Shown here in pieces: positions 3,099-32,745 of a stretch of DNA of 32,745 nucleotides. The first letter of the stretch is position 1. Each line of letters begins with the position of its first letter. Position numbers and translations under genes: made by a program. The notes under the pieces were generated by a model. The model saw only the letters and a program-made list of their open reading frames with translations. It ran no database searches and was not told where the DNA came from. This DNA is from a virus (taxonomy: Duplodnaviria; Heunggongvirae; Uroviricota; Caudoviricetes), in the IMG/VR virus record IMGVR_UViG_2531839479_000007, one strand, 5' to 3'.

Positions 3099-5540
3099 TC
3101 AGTCGAGTCTCATACTGGATCGCTGACGCGCACGTTTCTCGCGGTCAAGTTTGTCGACCGCGTCACGGAGCTGGCGGTCAAGGTCACTGCCCGGTGCGAC
3201 TCCGCCCTGCAGGTTGATGTTGTATTCGCTTTTGCTCTGGTCGATATAAGACAGGCCTGCGGGCGCTGTGACCGGCTGATACGCCTGATACCCGCCATAA
3301 CCTGCGGTCGCAGGGATATACCCGCCATTCGGGGACGCCTTATTCGCTTTCGCTGCGGTCTGGTCGAGGTCGCTGGATTCTTTTTTGATAACGCCGAGTT
3401 TCTCCAGCAGCCAGCCGACCTTGCCGCTCAGGCTGTTAAACATCTTGAGCGGCATCATCAGCGCATCAGCCAGCGCCTGGCCAAAAGTAACGCCGACATT
3501 TTTGCAACTGGAGAGCGTGTCCTGCGTGGCTTTCACCGGCGCAAGCAGGTCTTTAAACCACTGGCAGACGACACCCAGCTTTTCAGCGATGGCGTCAAAC
3601 ACCGGCGCGAGCGGGGTAAACATGTCCCCCACCGGTGCAAAGGCGGCTTTCAGTCCCTCCACCACGCCCGAGAAGAATGCACCGAGCGGCTCCCAGTATT
3701 TGCGGATCAGCAATGCACCGGCCACCACTGCACCGGCTACCGCCAGCACCGGCAGGCTGATTGCGCCAATGGCCGTGACAATCGCGCCGCCGACCGTACT
3801 GAAAACCACACCGAGCACGCCAGCCGCCGCAATGATGGCATTAATCCCCATCACCACCGGCCATGCGACAAGGCCAATCCCGCCCATCACACCGATCAGC
3901 GCCAGCGCACCACCAACCACCACGCCGAGGGTGGTCGCCAGCCCTTTATTTTTCTGGATCCAGCCGTCGAGCCTGAGCACATATTGCGTGGCCGTCTGCG
4001 TCAGCTTACGCAGTGAGCCCTCCTGCTGATCAAACAGGTCAGTGCCGACCGCCTCATAGGCTGACTGAAACTCTTTAAAGTCGCCGCCGAGGTTATCCTG
4101 CATAACCTTAACCAGTTCCTCAGTCTTACCGTCTGAGGCTTTAAACGCGGCGGTGAGCTGGTCGAGCTTGCCGCTTGATGCGGCGGCCATCAGCACGGCG
4201 GCCGCCGAGCTGGCCTCTTCACCGAAAATGGTTTTCATGTATTCGGATTTCTGACCCGTTCCGAGATTGTTTTTCTCAAAACTGCGCTGCATTTCTTTCA
4301 GGATGGAAAATATCGGGCGCGTATTGCCTTTGCTATCTGACGTTTTAATACCGAGCTCTTTGATGGCGTCGTACGCTTTACCGGTTGGCGCCTGCAGGCG
4401 ACTCAGAACGGCACGACTCCCTGTACCCGCCATCGAGCCGGTGATTTTGGAATCGTGCAGCGCCCCCACCATTGCGGCGGTTTCTTCGATACTTACCCCG
4501 GCATTTTTCGCCACTGGCGCGGCATAGGTCAGCGCATCACTCATTCCATCAAAGTCGGCGGCGGTTTTGTTCATCGTCATCGAGAGAACATCACCAATAT
4601 GCGCGACTTTATCGTTAGAGAGCTGAAAAGCAGATTTCATGCCTGTCAGCAGCGCAGCGTTTTCTTCCATCGTGCGCTTGTTCGACAGCGCCATATTCAG
4701 TGTGACCGGCGTCGCCGCCTGAATGGCCGCCGCATCGCCGCCGCTTTTGGCAATGATAATCTGCGCACCCGCCGCATCATCGGCAGAGGCAGCGGTATTA
4801 TCACCGAGCTGGCGCGCCTGTTTACGCAGCGCCTGCATTTCAGGCGACTGTTTGTCGACACCGAGCACGGCCTGCAGCTCTGAGTTTTTCTGTGCAAATT
4901 CATAACCAAGCGTCAGCAGCTTAACCCCGGCGAGGGTTCCCGCCGTCGCAATACCAACACCGGCTGCGCCAGCCGCCGCCGCGTTTCCGGCCAGTGATTT
5001 ACCGGCCTGATACCGCGCTTTCACCCGGCTTAACTTCGCCTGCTGTGCGCTGACTTTCGCCAGTGCCTCACGCTGCCGATTAAGCTGCGCGGTAGTCTCA
5101 CTGATGCGCGATTTAAGCCCCCGCTCATCATTTGCCAGATTACGGGTATTAATACCGACTGCACCGAGTTCACGTTGCTGGCGCTTAACAGACTCAGTGA
5201 GGCTGTTGTATTTCGTCTGCAGCCCGTTGGCGGCACGCTTTGCCGATTCAAGCACCTGCGCCTGCGCGCGCGTCGGGCGCTCGGTGTTTTTAAATTGTGT
5301 GGCAAGGGCTTGCGCTTCCTGTTTCGCTTTCTCAAGCGAATGACCGGTCACGGCAAGCTGGGCGCTGGCTTTGCGGAATCCGTCAATACGGGACGCCTGC
5401 ACATTAAGTTCGCACAGGCTTTTTTGTGAATTGCGGATATCACCAGACAGGGATTTGCTGGCGTTCTGAATCGCTTTAAGCGGGCGGCTTGCCCGGTCAA
5501 CTGCGTTCAGCAGCACCTCGATTCTGACGTTATTGCTCAT
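3099..5540 (-). CDS. T: Tail tape measure protein T
   Basis: 813 aa; Ala/Gly-rich central hydrophobic segment and coiled-coil-like N-terminal part typical of tape measure proteins; position between E/E' and U. Confidence 0.9.
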   Translation of the reverse strand: MSNNVRIEVLLNAVDRASRPLKAIQNASKSLSGDIRNSQKSLCELNVQASRIDGFRKASAQLAVTGHSLEKAKQEAQALATQFKNTERPTRAQAQVLESAKRAANGLQTKYNSLTESVKRQQRELGAVGINTRNLANDERGLKSRISETTAQLNRQREALAKVSAQQAKLSRVKARYQAGKSLAGNAAAAGAAGVGIATAGTLAGVKLLTLGYEFAQKNSELQAVLGVDKQSPEMQALRKQARQLGDNTAASADDAAGAQIIIAKSGGDAAAIQAATPVTLNMALSNKRTMEENAALLTGMKSAFQLSNDKVAHIGDVLSMTMNKTAADFDGMSDALTYAAPVAKNAGVSIEETAAMVGALHDSKITGSMAGTGSRAVLSRLQAPTGKAYDAIKELGIKTSDSKGNTRPIFSILKEMQRSFEKNNLGTGQKSEYMKTIFGEEASSAAAVLMAAASSGKLDQLTAAFKASDGKTEELVKVMQDNLGGDFKEFQSAYEAVGTDLFDQQEGSLRKLTQTATQYVLRLDGWIQKNKGLATTLGVVVGGALALIGVMGGIGLVAWPVVMGINAIIAAAGVLGVVFSTVGGAIVTAIGAISLPVLAVAGAVVAGALLIRKYWEPLGAFFSGVVEGLKAAFAPVGDMFTPLAPVFDAIAEKLGVVCQWFKDLLAPVKATQDTLSSCKNVGVTFGQALADALMMPLKMFNSLSGKVGWLLEKLGVIKKESSDLDQTAAKANKASPNGGYIPATAGYGGYQAYQPVTAPAGLSYIDQSKSEYNINLQGGVAPGSDLDRQLRDAVDKLDREKRARQRSSMRLD

Positions 5541-23026: not shown

Positions 23027-23055
23027 ATCACAGCCCACTTTATCGGGGCTGTGAT
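23027..23055. terminator. Perfect 10-bp inverted repeat between convergent Q and the cargo operon (candidate bidirectional terminator or structured element)
   Basis: ATCACAGCCC / 9-nt loop / GGGCTGTGAT; 64 nt after the Q stop and 4 nt before the cargo stop codon; no clear U-tract on either strand. Confidence 0.35.
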
Positions 23056-23058
23056 AAT

Positions 23059-24171
23059 TTAACCAACCCTTGCTTTTTTATATGGACCACAACTCCAACT
23101 AAAGAAATTCTTACCTAACTTATACCATTTATCAGAAAGCACTGGTGTTAGGTGAGGATTATATTTTTTTAAACTTCCCTTTTGTATATATTTCAATGTA
23201 TTGCTGAGCAAATTCTCTCCAAAACCATCATAACTTACACAAGCAGCGTTGCAGCTACAACGTTTTGATTCGATATACTCACAATCATATTTTATATCAA
23301 GCTTCTTTAATATCGGACGCCAATATGCACCATGTTTTCGATCGAGTTCAAGGGCTGTTTTAAAATCAAAACCTTTTTTATGGTCAATATAAAATTTTAC
23401 TGATTCATCTACGGAGCAAAGATGCTTAAAGAAAATGAGAGATTTTTCTTTTTGTTGCAATTGACTTTGACTTCTTAATACATCTTCAATTGTCGATAAA
23501 GGAACTAGAGATTCTATTTCATGTACATCTAAAATCTCCACGAAACCTGAGCGAGTAATTTGTGAGCCCAAAAAATGTGAGCAAGTACCTCCGAATGGGG
23601 CTCCAGGATGTTTTTTGTCATTATCCACAATACAAAAAACTATCTCATTATTTTGAATTGCACGCTCGAATATATCCTTAGTACTGCCCCCACCGCCATT
23701 TAGAGCGATAAAACCCATTTCGCAGCGAGATAAGTTAATACCTTCGGCATAATGAGCCGCTATAACCTTAAAAAAATCAGAATCCAAAGGATTTTCACAT
23801 ACTATTTTCGTTTTTTGCAATTGTGCCGAGTCATTAAAATACAATGGACCACAAACAAATTTAAAAGATTCACCGATCTGAACCCATTTAAATGATTTAT
23901 CACTAATATTAAAGTCGACAGATACATAAAATGAGACCTGATCCAAGATAGCATAGTACTCTGTTAGACCCGACAAAGCCTCTTGCGCGTAACTTTTTGA
24001 TGAAAGGCTATAAAGCCCGCTTTGATCATTGATAATAGTTTTAAAAAAAACCCTTGCCCCTATAACCAAGTGTTTTTGTTCAGCGAATGCCCGAAGTATA
24101 TTTTCAACCGCTATGGCAAATGAGTTATTTAGCACCTTCTCAGGTGTCGCATTTTCGATATTAATCAACAT
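23059..24171 (-). CDS. Cargo gene 2: 370-aa partner protein of the ATPase, unknown function (possible Toprim-like E...DxD core; Cys-rich C-terminus)
   Basis: ATG at 24169-24171 only 2 nt after the ATPase TAG stop; AT-rich; ...RCEMGFIALNGGGGS...IVFCIVDNDKK... could be Toprim-like; C-terminal CEYIESKRCSCNAAC cluster. Confidence 0.6.
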   Translation of the reverse strand: MLINIENATPEKVLNNSFAIAVENILRAFAEQKHLVIGARVFFKTIINDQSGLYSLSSKSYAQEALSGLTEYYAILDQVSFYVSVDFNISDKSFKWVQIGESFKFVCGPLYFNDSAQLQKTKIVCENPLDSDFFKVIAAHYAEGINLSRCEMGFIALNGGGGSTKDIFERAIQNNEIVFCIVDNDKKHPGAPFGGTCSHFLGSQITRSGFVEILDVHEIESLVPLSTIEDVLRSQSQLQQKEKSLIFFKHLCSVDESVKFYIDHKKGFDFKTALELDRKHGAYWRPILKKLDIKYDCEYIESKRCSCNAACVSYDGFGENLLSNTLKYIQKGSLKKYNPHLTPVLSDKWYKLGKNFFSWSCGPYKKARVG

Positions 24172-24173
24172 AA

Positions 24174-25730
24174 CTACTTACCCGAGAAAAAGCCAACCGG
24201 CCAATTTTTTAGGAAACCATTCTCGTCAAAATAAGATTTCTTAACTATAGTCTGCTGCTTATCATCTTTTTCAAATACCAGTATTGAAATATCATCCTGT
24301 GAAAGACTTTCATTTTCCTCAATATATTCACCAAGTGCTTCAATCATGGTCTGGCTATGTGTCTCAAAAATTATCTTCAAATCTACATTATTTTCTTTTG
24401 CTTTAGTTACTACTTTTGCAAAAATACTTGCTAAATTATGCTGATATGACGGATGTAAATGCAATTCTGGCTGCTCAATGATAAATGTTATAGGTTTTCT
24501 AACCGTGGTAGCACGACGTTCTGTCTCAAGCCAAATGGCTGTAACTATCGGCAAAACCTGAGAATAACCAAACCCCATATCACTAACATTATAGTTCTCA
24601 CTATTTTCACCGGTGTTTATTAAAATTGCAAAGTGAGAGCCACTTTGTTCAACCTTGATAATGAAATCAAAATTTAACTTTGTCCAATCTTCAAATTTTG
24701 ATTTATCAGCCGGTCTTAATGAATTCAAAAGCATTGCAAGATTGGAACCAGTATGATCTATCTCATTAACCTGTAAATCTTGAAAACGATAAAATCTTTC
24801 TGATGTAGCACGCAGTGGAGCTATGTACTTTACATTTCTGAATGAATCTGACAAGGATGTATTTATTATATCTATAAGATTATTAATATTCCATCCAATT
24901 ATAAATGGATATAACTCATTCATTATTTCATCATGTTGAAATTCAAAGTTTCTACTAAAAACTTTTTGTTCCTTAAATAGAAAAGCAACTAATTTACTAG
25001 CGTACGCTTTGGGTATAAAGCCAATTCTTTTGAATGCCTCTGTCACTTGATTTATATCAGATTTAGTATGGAAATATTTCTTTATATATTTCGCCGCTGA
25101 ATCAATAAATGACAATTCTAACGCCCTGTCATGCCTAGAATGTCTCAAATAGAATGATGTGCTTGGAGGAGGACTGTCTTCCTTACCCTTCAAAATTAGA
25201 TTTGGTATGAACTGCCCAAGATTTTTAGCTATTATCCCATCACGCTCTATTGTTTTATCATCTGATTCAATGAGTAATTTAACATTACTACTCTCATCCA
25301 TTGAAATAAATATTGTTAAATCAGCCAATATAAGCTTAATCGTTTTCGTTTTTGTTTTTTTATCTTTAGAGTAAACAGTTAACTCTGCTTCAATATCTGT
25401 TGGTTGCTTTGCTAAATCAGTAGAACGATAATATGTATATCTTTGTGAAACCTCTGGCGGAATTGAGAGTGAAAAACTAAACGTAATTTCTTTTTTTTCA
25501 GAGTTTCGGGAAAGTACATCTGTAAAATCGCCAAAATCCACATATCTCCCATACCATAGTATTGGGCCAGTAGTATTTTCTTCTACAGATTGACGAAGTA
25601 AAGGAAATGTGCGCAATAGGGAACTTTTACCACTGCTGTTCTTACCAACAAATACTGTAATTGGTTTTAAATCAATAAACGTTTTGTTGACAAAGCTCCT
25701 GAAGTTTTGAAGACCTATACCCTTAATCAT
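24174..25730 (-). CDS. Cargo gene 1: ABC/OLD-family (AAA_15/AAA_21-like) ATPase without a C-terminal Toprim domain
   Basis: Start set at MIKGIGLQNFRSF (ATG 25728-25730, GGAG 6 nt upstream); Walker A GKNSSGKSS, Walker B/D-loop ITFIIEQPELHLHP, H-loop IIFETHS; ORF-track start at 25802 is TTG inside the cos-like sequence. Confidence 0.75.
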   Translation of the reverse strand: MIKGIGLQNFRSFVNKTFIDLKPITVFVGKNSSGKSSLLRTFPLLRQSVEENTTGPILWYGRYVDFGDFTDVLSRNSEKKEITFSFSLSIPPEVSQRYTYYRSTDLAKQPTDIEAELTVYSKDKKTKTKTIKLILADLTIFISMDESSNVKLLIESDDKTIERDGIIAKNLGQFIPNLILKGKEDSPPPSTSFYLRHSRHDRALELSFIDSAAKYIKKYFHTKSDINQVTEAFKRIGFIPKAYASKLVAFLFKEQKVFSRNFEFQHDEIMNELYPFIIGWNINNLIDIINTSLSDSFRNVKYIAPLRATSERFYRFQDLQVNEIDHTGSNLAMLLNSLRPADKSKFEDWTKLNFDFIIKVEQSGSHFAILINTGENSENYNVSDMGFGYSQVLPIVTAIWLETERRATTVRKPITFIIEQPELHLHPSYQHNLASIFAKVVTKAKENNVDLKIIFETHSQTMIEALGEYIEENESLSQDDISILVFEKDDKQQTIVKKSYFDENGFLKNWPVGFFSGK

Positions 25731-30344: not shown

Positions 30345-30620
30345 TTATGCTGGTTCACCTAATCCCAACCACATCAACCAACCATCCCGAATTTCTTTAG
30401 GGCGACTGTCATAGGCCATCTTCATGCCTTTGTTCCATGCTGGCAGATATACCCAGTATTCCCCTGCTCTCCCACTTGTAGACTGCGGATCAGTCATCTC
30501 AACTATCGGTAGTTTGCCTTTCTCAATCATCCCTTTGACAGCAGCAGGGGTTTTACCAATAAGACGCGCAAACTCCTGATACGGAACCGCGTCGCTCGCG
30601 CTCTCAATGACCCTATTCAT
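30345..30620 (-). CDS. cox: Cox (excisionase / lytic-lysogenic switch protein)
   Basis: 91 aa; ...PYQEFARLIGK...DPQSTSGRAGEYWVYLPAWN...SRPKEIRDGWLMWLGLGEP closely matches P2 Cox as I recall it. Confidence 0.9.
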   Translation of the reverse strand: MNRVIESASDAVPYQEFARLIGKTPAAVKGMIEKGKLPIVEMTDPQSTSGRAGEYWVYLPAWNKGMKMAYDSRPKEIRDGWLMWLGLGEPA

Positions 30621-31148: not shown

Positions 31149-32162
31149 ATGTCTGTTAAAAAGCTCGATGATGGTCGTTATGAAGTGGACATTAGACCTG
31201 CAGGGCGCAACGGAAAGCGCATCCGCAGGAAATTTGACAAGAAAAGCGAAGCTATCGCTTTCGAGAAGCATACCCAGTACAACCATCACAACAAAGAATG
31301 GTTGGCGAAACCGACAGATAAGCGGCATCTGTCAGAGCTAACAAAAATCTGGTGGGAGCTGAAAGGCAAGTATGAAACTCACGGCCGAGATTACCTGGGC
31401 AAGTTAGAGTTGTTCACAAAGATAACCAGTGACCCTTGTGCCTTTCAGATTACTAAGTCATTGATAAGCCAATACAGCACTGTGCGGCGTTCTCAAGGCA
31501 TCAAGCCATCGAGTATAAATCGTGATTTAACGTGTCTTAGCGGGATGTTTACCGCGTTGATAGATGCGGAGCTATTTTTCGGGGAGCATCCTTTCCGAGG
31601 TCTTAAAAGACTCAAAGAGGATAAGCCAGAAACCGGCTACCTGACGCAAGAGGAGATCGCGCTTCTGCTGTCAAAAGTGGACGGTGATAATAAAAAAATT
31701 GCGATTCTTTGCCTTAGCACCGGCGCGAGATGGAGTGAGGCAGCAAAACTGAAAGCGGAAAATATCATTCAAAATCGCGTCACTTTCGTTAAGACAAAAA
31801 CCAACAAGCCGCGAACCGTTCCTATATCCGAGGAACTGGCAACAATGATCACAACGGGTAAGCGTGGCTATCTGTTCACTGATGCTAACTATCCCGCGTT
31901 CAGACGGCTAATGAAGGAGCTGAAACCCGACCTACCACCGGGTCAGGCTACGCACGCATTGCGGCACAGCTTCGCCACGCACTTTATGATAAACGGAGGC
32001 AACATTATCACGCTTCAGAGAATACTTGGGCATTCAAGAATTGAGCAGACAATGACATATGCGCACTTCGCCCCTGAGTACCTACAGGACGCGATAACGC
32101 TTAATCCTCTACGTGGTGGTGTTGGCTCTCAGAGTGTCCACACAGTGTCCACAGTAGGGTAG
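31149..32162 (+). CDS. int: Tyrosine integrase
   Basis: Start set at MSVKKLDDGRYEVDIRP (ATG 31149, GGGAGG 4 nt upstream); 337 aa as P2 Int; C-terminal ...HALRHSFATHFMINGGNIITLQRILGHSRIEQTMTYAHF catalytic region. Confidence 0.9.
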   Translation: MSVKKLDDGRYEVDIRPAGRNGKRIRRKFDKKSEAIAFEKHTQYNHHNKEWLAKPTDKRHLSELTKIWWELKGKYETHGRDYLGKLELFTKITSDPCAFQITKSLISQYSTVRRSQGIKPSSINRDLTCLSGMFTALIDAELFFGEHPFRGLKRLKEDKPETGYLTQEEIALLLSKVDGDNKKIAILCLSTGARWSEAAKLKAENIIQNRVTFVKTKTNKPRTVPISEELATMITTGKRGYLFTDANYPAFRRLMKELKPDLPPGQATHALRHSFATHFMINGGNIITLQRILGHSRIEQTMTYAHFAPEYLQDAITLNPLRGGVGSQSVHTVSTVG

Positions 32163-32246
32163 TTTATTATGGCTTTCAGTGGTCTTGCGTGCCGCGCAAA
32201 CCCGCATTGCACCGCTGAAAGCCCCTGTTGTAAGGGTATATAAACG

Positions 32247-32269
32247 CCCTTACACGGGCTTATTTTTTT
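32247..32269. other. att core (right prophage junction), P2-type
   Basis: CCCTTACACGGGCTTATTTTTTT; reverse complement AAAAAAATAAGCCCGTGTAAGGG matches about 22 positions of the P2 27-bp core as I recall it; 85 bp downstream of int. Confidence 0.55.
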
Positions 32270-32332
32270 ATGCATAAGCCCTATCTCTGGTAACCGTCTT
32301 CCATTGACCACATCGATAGAATCTCCCTTCAT

Positions 32333-32365
32333 AGCACGATGCCTTTCACGTAACGGCATCGTGCT
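32333..32365. other. Perfect 11-bp inverted repeat (stem-loop) in the right flank
   Basis: AGCACGATGCC / 11-nt loop / GGCATCGTGCT; no adjacent U-tract; about 60 nt downstream of the lipoprotein gene stop. Confidence 0.3.
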
Positions 32366-32427
32366 CGCACAGGTTCCGGCTAAGCACAACCAGAACGCGC
32401 ATGTTTGACGCTTACCAAAAAATATTC

Positions 32428-32745
32428 TCACTCTCCACATTTGAATGTCAGACGAGCGACGCCATGTAATCCTGCACCTTCTGTCTTCAGGTCAACTATC
32501 TGCATTTTTTTGCCCTGAGTAACACAGAAATGGGCTGCATCATTTTTTACTATATTTTCTGCACCAGATATTCTGCCCCTGGCTAAAGAAGCTTCGGCTT
32601 CGGTGTAGTATTGGTTATCGAGTTTACGCTGAATATTACTTTTATATGCAAGACCAAATTTACCGATACTTGTCTCATCATTATGCACAGCACAACCAGA
32701 CACAATAAAAATACTAATTAATGATATAGCAGCTATCTTTTTCAT
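32428..32745 (-). CDS. Small lipoprotein (flanking gene outside the prophage)
   Basis: 105 aa; ATG at 32743-32745 (window edge); signal peptide MKKIAAISLISIFIVSGC with lipobox; AT-rich. Confidence 0.6.
   Translation of the reverse strand: MKKIAAISLISIFIVSGCAVHNDETSIGKFGLAYKSNIQRKLDNQYYTEAEASLARGRISGAENIVKNDAAHFCVTQGKKMQIVDLKTEGAGLHGVARLTFKCGE

Follow-up and report, generated by a model that had tools for sequence, protein, structure and literature searches.

The best points of comparison for the junction described here are phage P2 and the prophages and prophage remnants that occupy the same chromosomal site. In the P2 reference record (AF063097), the attP core is annotated at 24356–24382, the Int P′ arm at 24470–24496 and the Cox-binding region at 24399–24472, and an IHF site and the P arm are also annotated, on the ogr side. 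The host gene concerned has been described as a phage target as well. The E. coli W genome paper (PMC3032704) gives 'cyaR RNA' as the place where P2-like elements are inserted in strains W, K-12 (ogr-D′) and B, and according to Bobay et al. (PMC3603311) it was already known that phages target ryeE in E. coli. Both P2 core recombination and the targeting of ryeE/cyaR are already published, and the finding presented here is ordinary, well-described biology.

Several related elements are useful for placing it. The P2 remnant of E. coli K-12 (ogrK to yegZ/D′, by yegR) lies at the same locus, with cyaR, the core, the P arm and ogr on one side and the yegR flank on the other; the record 'phage TP' (AY639599) is a K-12-type remnant of this locus. 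The K-12 remnant has lost everything from D to int, and its int-side core is shortened to TACACGGGCTTATTTTTTT, with homology to our sequence only from 32251, whereas the int-side junction studied here is complete. The prophages Wphi2 and P2*B of E. coli W and B are P2-like and sit at the same sRNA gene (PMC3032704), the likeness being judged here by insertion site. Integrases of the 186 and P4 types, which act at the 3′ ends of tRNA and tmRNA genes, provide a further parallel, as the core likewise duplicates the 3′ end of a structured RNA and the gene is regenerated (PMC3448106). However, the target here is the terminator of an Hfq-type sRNA instead of a tRNA-like fold, and the integrase falls in the P2 arm-site class, not in the 186 class.

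The window, that is, the whole stretch of DNA that was analysed, comprises 32,745 nucleotides of an IMG/VR Caudoviricetes record (IMGVR_UViG_2531839479_000007). We are highly confident that the window contains the int-proximal junction of a P2-like (Peduovirus) prophage, with its core at 32242–32268, and that this prophage is inserted at locI, the classical P2 site and the attB of P2 in E. coli C, at the 3′ end of cyaR (ryeE) between yegQ/trhP and yegR. Although this is the right end in window coordinates, the junction is attL (BOP′) in P2 nomenclature, because it includes both the P′ arm and the Cox region, and attL is described as the place of action of P2 Cox (PMC3936717). A previous, sequence-only reading had taken a P2-type att core downstream of int to mark the right prophage boundary. 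This was borne out by empty sites and by a direct repeat in E. coli GPEC1222; the reading was incomplete, not wrong, and it overlooked that the core coincides with the 3′ end of the gene for the CyaR sRNA.

Layout of the attachment site beside int

The string originally proposed as the core, the 23-mer CCCTTACACGGGCTTATTTTTTT, is present exactly at 32247–32269 on the + strand and has no other match in the window even when three mismatches are allowed (0 chance matches expected from shuffles). It starts 85 nt past the stop codon of int, and the distance from that stop codon to the 27-bp core as defined in P2 (32242–32268) is 79 nt. The proposed likeness to the P2 core holds against the annotated record: 25 of the 27 positions agree with AF063097 24356–24382, and 22 of the matched positions are contiguous. 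The two mismatches, at 32244 and 32246, give the core a left edge that reads AAACG instead of the AATCT of P2, which reduces the identity between phage and host from 27 bp to 22 bp.

The remainder of the attachment region has the same order as in P2, namely int, a P′ arm with two copies of TGTCCACA, the Cox region and the core, and it aligns with P2 without any indel. The P′ arm (32128–32154) is identical to P2 24470–24496 at 25 of 27 positions in gapless register. It contains two direct arm-type repeats, TGTCCACA, at 32135–32142 and 32146–32153, within the 3′ end of int, and both are a perfect fit, on the complementary strand, to the published arm-site consensus tgTGGaCa (PMC3448106). The P-arm copies of these sites are present at the far end of the GPEC1222 prophage, where the segment after the core aligns with the annotated IHF region of P2; this segment lies outside the window. 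The stretch at 32152–32225 is the homologue of the P2 Cox-binding region ('protein_bind Cox', 24399–24472), with 59 of 74 positions identical, and is followed by a spacer of 16 nt (32226–32241) that, unlike the rest of the layout, is unrelated to its P2 equivalent (3/16 identical).

An inverted repeat had been reported at 32171–32223. It is real, with 13-nt arms (32171–32183 and 32211–32223) that are 92% complementary and 27 nt apart, but it lies within the Cox-region homologue and not in an Int arm. Additional hairpin-forming pairs, 32219–32228 with 32252–32261 and 32229–32236 with 32247–32254, join the upstream DNA to the core. The arms of the inverted repeat hold words resembling the cox box in opposite orientation, at 32170–32178 (one mismatch) and 32216–32224 (two mismatches). 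Weak matches of this kind to the consensus TTAAA(G/C)NCA (1–2 mismatches) are no commoner than the window background, and they lend no independent support.

The genes of the recombination module are intact. The int gene (31149–32162, + strand) is transcribed towards the core and encodes a P2-type tyrosine integrase of 337 aa, with 84% amino acid identity to P2 Int over 336 aa without gaps and with the Pfam domains Int_N (PF24624, 86 bits) and Phage_integrase (PF00589, 77 bits). Just upstream of int lie genes for a Phage_Cox protein and an HTH repressor. The first of these, cox (30345–30620, − strand; Phage_Cox, PF10743, 141 bits), is the excision directionality factor of the same module; in GPEC1222 its annotation reads 'regulatory phage cox family protein'. 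The predicted repressor belongs to the HTH_3 family.

Empty sites, the direct repeat and the CyaR gene

The exact position of the boundary can be read from genomes with and without the prophage. When the right part of the window was searched against 5426 complete E. coli genomes, a match was found in 5418, and homology starts at 32241, at 32247 or, in K-12, at 32251. In the prophage-free strains E. coli HS and MB06234, yegQ/trhP, cyaR and yegR stand in a row: yegQ/trhP is followed by a sequence of 86 nt and then by the same DNA that lies beyond the core in the window, the right flank of MB06234 being 100% identical to the window over 110 nt. Comparison with a prophage-free relative had been set beforehand as the test that could refute the boundary, and in HS and MB06234 homology with the window begins at 32241–32247, where the boundary had been placed.

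The other side of the argument comes from GPEC1222 (L007), whose prophage lies between trhP and yegR and differs from the window by no more than 12 mismatches and 2 gaps (99.94% identity). The 22-mer CCCTTACACGGGCTTATTTTTT occurs exactly twice in this sequence, at 3351–3372 and 35852–35873, bracketing the prophage, with 0 occurrences expected by chance. It is important to note that the direct repeat is demonstrated in this close relative, not in the source genome. The junctions read AATCT-22mer-GCATG at the far end, AAACG-22mer-TATGC at the window end and AATCT-22mer-TATGC at the empty site; therefore, AAACG (32242–32246) is of phage origin and the sequence from 32269 onward is host. By the same comparison, strand exchange must have occurred somewhere inside the block of 22 bp shared by phage and host (32247–32268), and its precise positions are not deducible from sequence. 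Of the 23-mer first proposed, the 22 bp at 32247–32268 are thus the block itself, while the final T (32269) falls outside it, as the other end has a G.

The 86-nt sequence of the empty sites was identified by Rfam as CyaR/RyeE (RF00112, 100.7 bits), in which the terminator stem-loop and its tail run into the P2 core. Within the CyaR terminator, the 27-bp core of P2 reaches from the last two stem bases through the loop and the 3′ stem to the U-tail. The 22-bp block begins three bases into the loop and covers the final 3 loop bases together with the stem and tail that follow. Beside the GPEC1222 prophage, cyaR is intact (L007 3284–3369, 100.7 bits). Since the phage core duplicates the 3′ end of CyaR, recombination within the 22 bp left the gene intact at the ogr-proximal end. 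Integration therefore regenerates cyaR at the far prophage end, as tRNA-targeting integrases do with their target genes. Two further ideas about the origin of the junction sequence were rejected. The copy at the window junction is not a second cyaR, as a permissive Rfam search (E ≤ 10) of window positions 31900–32745 gave no match and the duplication covers no more than the final 22 nt of the sRNA. Nor was AAACGCCC... copied from the cyaR of another species, as the sequence is absent from all species-representative genomes.

The same target is seen outside E. coli. In Kluyvera and Enterobacter hormaechei, CyaR ends in the conserved 27-nt P2 core, and in K. intermedia and E. ruysiae this end of the gene harbours P2-like prophages. 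A record named 'E. coli ECDA1023' combines a Kluyvera-like cyaR sequence with a yegR that is 96% identical.

The ends of the window do not coincide with those of the prophage. The window starts about 240 nt inside the far prophage end and is therefore without the ogr-side core, the P arm and the second copy of the 22-mer. At the other side it runs ~480 nt past the prophage into the host chromosome and stops exactly at the start codon of yegR, the same base at which two IMG/VR prophage predictions (L009, L010) end. Such imprecise ends suggest that the window is the product of automated prophage calling.

Two sets of additional genes were observed elsewhere in the prophage. A gene for a trypsin-like peptidase (window ~1–850; L007 3611–4462, − strand) lies between the P arm/ogr terminator and the ogr-like regulator, and it is presumably cargo (a moron), because P2 has no gene at this position. 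A gene for a DUF3696-domain protein and an adjacent hypothetical gene (window ~23050–25730; L007 26664–29335, − strand) are non-structural cargo next to the portal gene, where P2-like genomes are variable, and this protein and its neighbour could be an anti-phage defence pair.

Spread of the junction and its likely capacity for recombination

The proposed mechanism of insertion follows that of P2. The sequence comparison shows recombination between the phage core and the 3′ end of cyaR, with the crossover inside the 22 bp, and its product at the int end is phage P′ DNA fused to the yegR flank of the host. By analogy with P2, a heterobivalent tyrosine integrase is expected to bind the two TGTCCACA arm sites (32135–32153) together with the core; integration would be catalysed by Int with IHF, the latter bending the P arm, and Cox bound across 32152–32225, between the core and the P′ arm, would switch the complex to excision. 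The attP predicted after excision is ...GTATATAAACG-CCCTTACACGGGCTTATTTTTT-GCATGTAACTT..., and the attB predicted to be restored has cyaR joined directly to ...TTTTTTTATGCATAAGCCC.

A P2-family int stands at the cyaR junction in 798 of the 5426 complete E. coli genomes. The int variant of the window (≥96% nucleotide identity) accounts for about 37 of these 798, and most of the others fall in a class that is ~80% identical. The same P′ side is found at the same position next to at least three host-flank alleles, which differ as T6/T7, as TCTCTGGTAACC vs TCCCTGGTCACC and as GAATCTCCC vs GAATCCTCC. The occurrence of one P′ side on several flank alleles in unrelated strains fits repeated site-specific integration.

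The most serious alternative is that the junction is a fossil, the prophage being defective and its core no longer a working recombination site. An exact search of viral and metagenome contigs for the excised P′-core-P junction found none, and no free-phage record carrying this int was found. The two IMG/VR matches to the phage side are prophage predictions running into yegR and not genomes of free phages. The core also shares only 22 bp with the host, against 27 bp in P2, with two differing positions at its left edge. However, the AAACG edge is found in other int classes at this site as well, including the commonest one, and it is therefore a normal variant and not a disabling mutation. Further points against decay are that both int and cox have their full length and intact domains, that the GPEC1222 prophage has a complete P2 gene set, that the same P′ side stands on several host-flank alleles in unrelated strains, and that the prophage is absent from a strain whose flank is identical. 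On balance we consider a fossil junction unlikely, and from the sequences the site described here, attL of a P2-like prophage at cyaR, is likely to be capable of recombination at present.

The host flank and the int 3′ UTR

Directly after the core lies the spacer between cyaR and yegR (32269–32427), which follows cyaR immediately in prophage-free genomes and is matched in 5418 of the 5426 complete genomes. It is followed by the host gene yegR (32428–32745, − strand), annotated in RefSeq both with and without the prophage and encoding a predicted lipoprotein of 105 aa, for which no Pfam family match was found. The lipoprotein gene that had been noticed beyond the core is this one, and some RefSeq records name its product 'lipoprotein YegR'. 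The AT-rich turn that had been seen in the same place applies to yegR (38.7% GC) and not to the spacer, where 32270–32427 has 48.1% GC. A hairpin with a 14-bp stem (AGCACGATGCCTTT / AACGGCATCGTGCT, 93% complementary) is present at 32333–32365, between the P-arm-like stretch described next and the yegR stop codon; it is kept in Escherichia sp. MOD1-EC7003 and has no U run on either strand.

Part of the spacer, 32282–32316, resembles a decayed P2-type P arm. Its alignment with the P arm of P2 scores 38, compared with a mean of 14 and a maximum of 27 for shuffles, and it contains the arm-type word TGACCACA at 32305–32312. Over 17 of 17 bases (CATTGACCACATCGATA) the relic, which HS and MB06234 carry as well, is identical to the P arm of the phage itself. 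In MOD1-EC7003, a full-length P-arm-like segment, including the region of the IHF site, comes directly after cyaR, and the E. coli flank is this segment minus 16 nt, a deletion. In Kluyvera and Enterobacter, the CyaR 3′ end is shared and the flank is not. By sequence, the 'empty' E. coli site itself looks like a very old, eroded P2-type junction. P2-like phages have cargo genes beside the P arm; yegR occupies the corresponding place in the same orientation, and it might be a leftover phage moron.

These features could also be taken to mean that the present prophage extends further right, with 32282–32316 and perhaps yegR belonging to it and the core being internal. The resemblance of the flank to the P2 P arm is indeed far beyond chance and includes the arm-type word TGACCACA, and yegR is low in GC (38.7%), lacks a Pfam match and is lacking or different downstream of cyaR in Kluyvera, Enterobacter and E. 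ruysiae. But nearly every complete E. coli genome (5418 of 5426) has both the flank and yegR, which adjoin cyaR in the prophage-free ones; they are therefore fixed host DNA today and at most the fossil of a much older insertion, which makes an extended element highly improbable.

On the phage side, the int 3′ UTR (121 nt) folds into two hairpins (−46.1 kcal/mol, z −3.6). The first is the inverted repeat at 32171–32223 (−27.7 kcal/mol, z −4.6), which has an equivalent in P2 (−24.8 kcal/mol, z −5.3). Among six att variants it shows few one-sided transitions only, all of which keep G-U or Watson-Crick pairs; these are too few for covariation to tell a structured RNA from conserved sites of protein binding. 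The second is a terminator-like hairpin with a U7 tail (CUUAUUUUUUU; 32219–32269, + strand), in which a 5′ half-stem of phage DNA (32219–32237) pairs with the core (32246–32261). It has a folding energy of −21.6 kcal/mol (z −4.4), and 0 of 200 shuffles were equally stable. It is more stable than the native CyaR terminator (−15.9 kcal/mol) and, owing to the unrelated pre-core spacer, far more so than the hairpin in P2 (−9.7 kcal/mol, z −1.0). A simple terminator scan did not call the hairpin at 32219–32269, probably because its stem is bulged. According to the folding model, the half-stem at the int end would mimic the CyaR terminator, and the hairpin that it forms with the core and U7 probably terminates int transcription.

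That this sequence is only an intrinsic terminator of int, with an incidental likeness to the P2 core and the true boundary elsewhere, is scarcely credible: a strong hairpin and U7 do follow int directly, but prophage-free genomes lose homology with the window exactly here, which refutes it as an exclusive explanation, the 22-mer is repeated at the other prophage end, and the roles of terminator and attachment site are compatible, not alternatives.

A broader reading concerns both sides of the core. In it, the host side may be a fossil P2 junction with a decayed P arm, in which TGACCACA, 37–44 bp from the core, could still bind Int, and yegR could be a domesticated moron; separately, the hairpin that mimics the CyaR terminator could act as a regulatory element of the int 3′ UTR or as an Hfq-binding element. 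Taken jointly, we regard these proposals as quite unlikely.

For the attachment of the prophage at the 3′ end of cyaR, the comparison has three consequences. The right prophage boundary is fixed to an interval of 22 bp; the last ~480 bp of the window, which consist of the cyaR–yegR spacer and yegR, are host DNA and not phage; and the insertion is identified as one at locI/cyaR, a site that is occupied in about 15% of complete E. coli genomes. What is mildly new is descriptive only, namely the common AAACG edge that cuts the phage–host identity to 22 bp, the strengthened hairpin mimicking the CyaR terminator, and the evidence that the host flank is an eroded P2-type arm. If the broader reading of the host side were true, the relic Int word could help to make locI a preferred site of P2.
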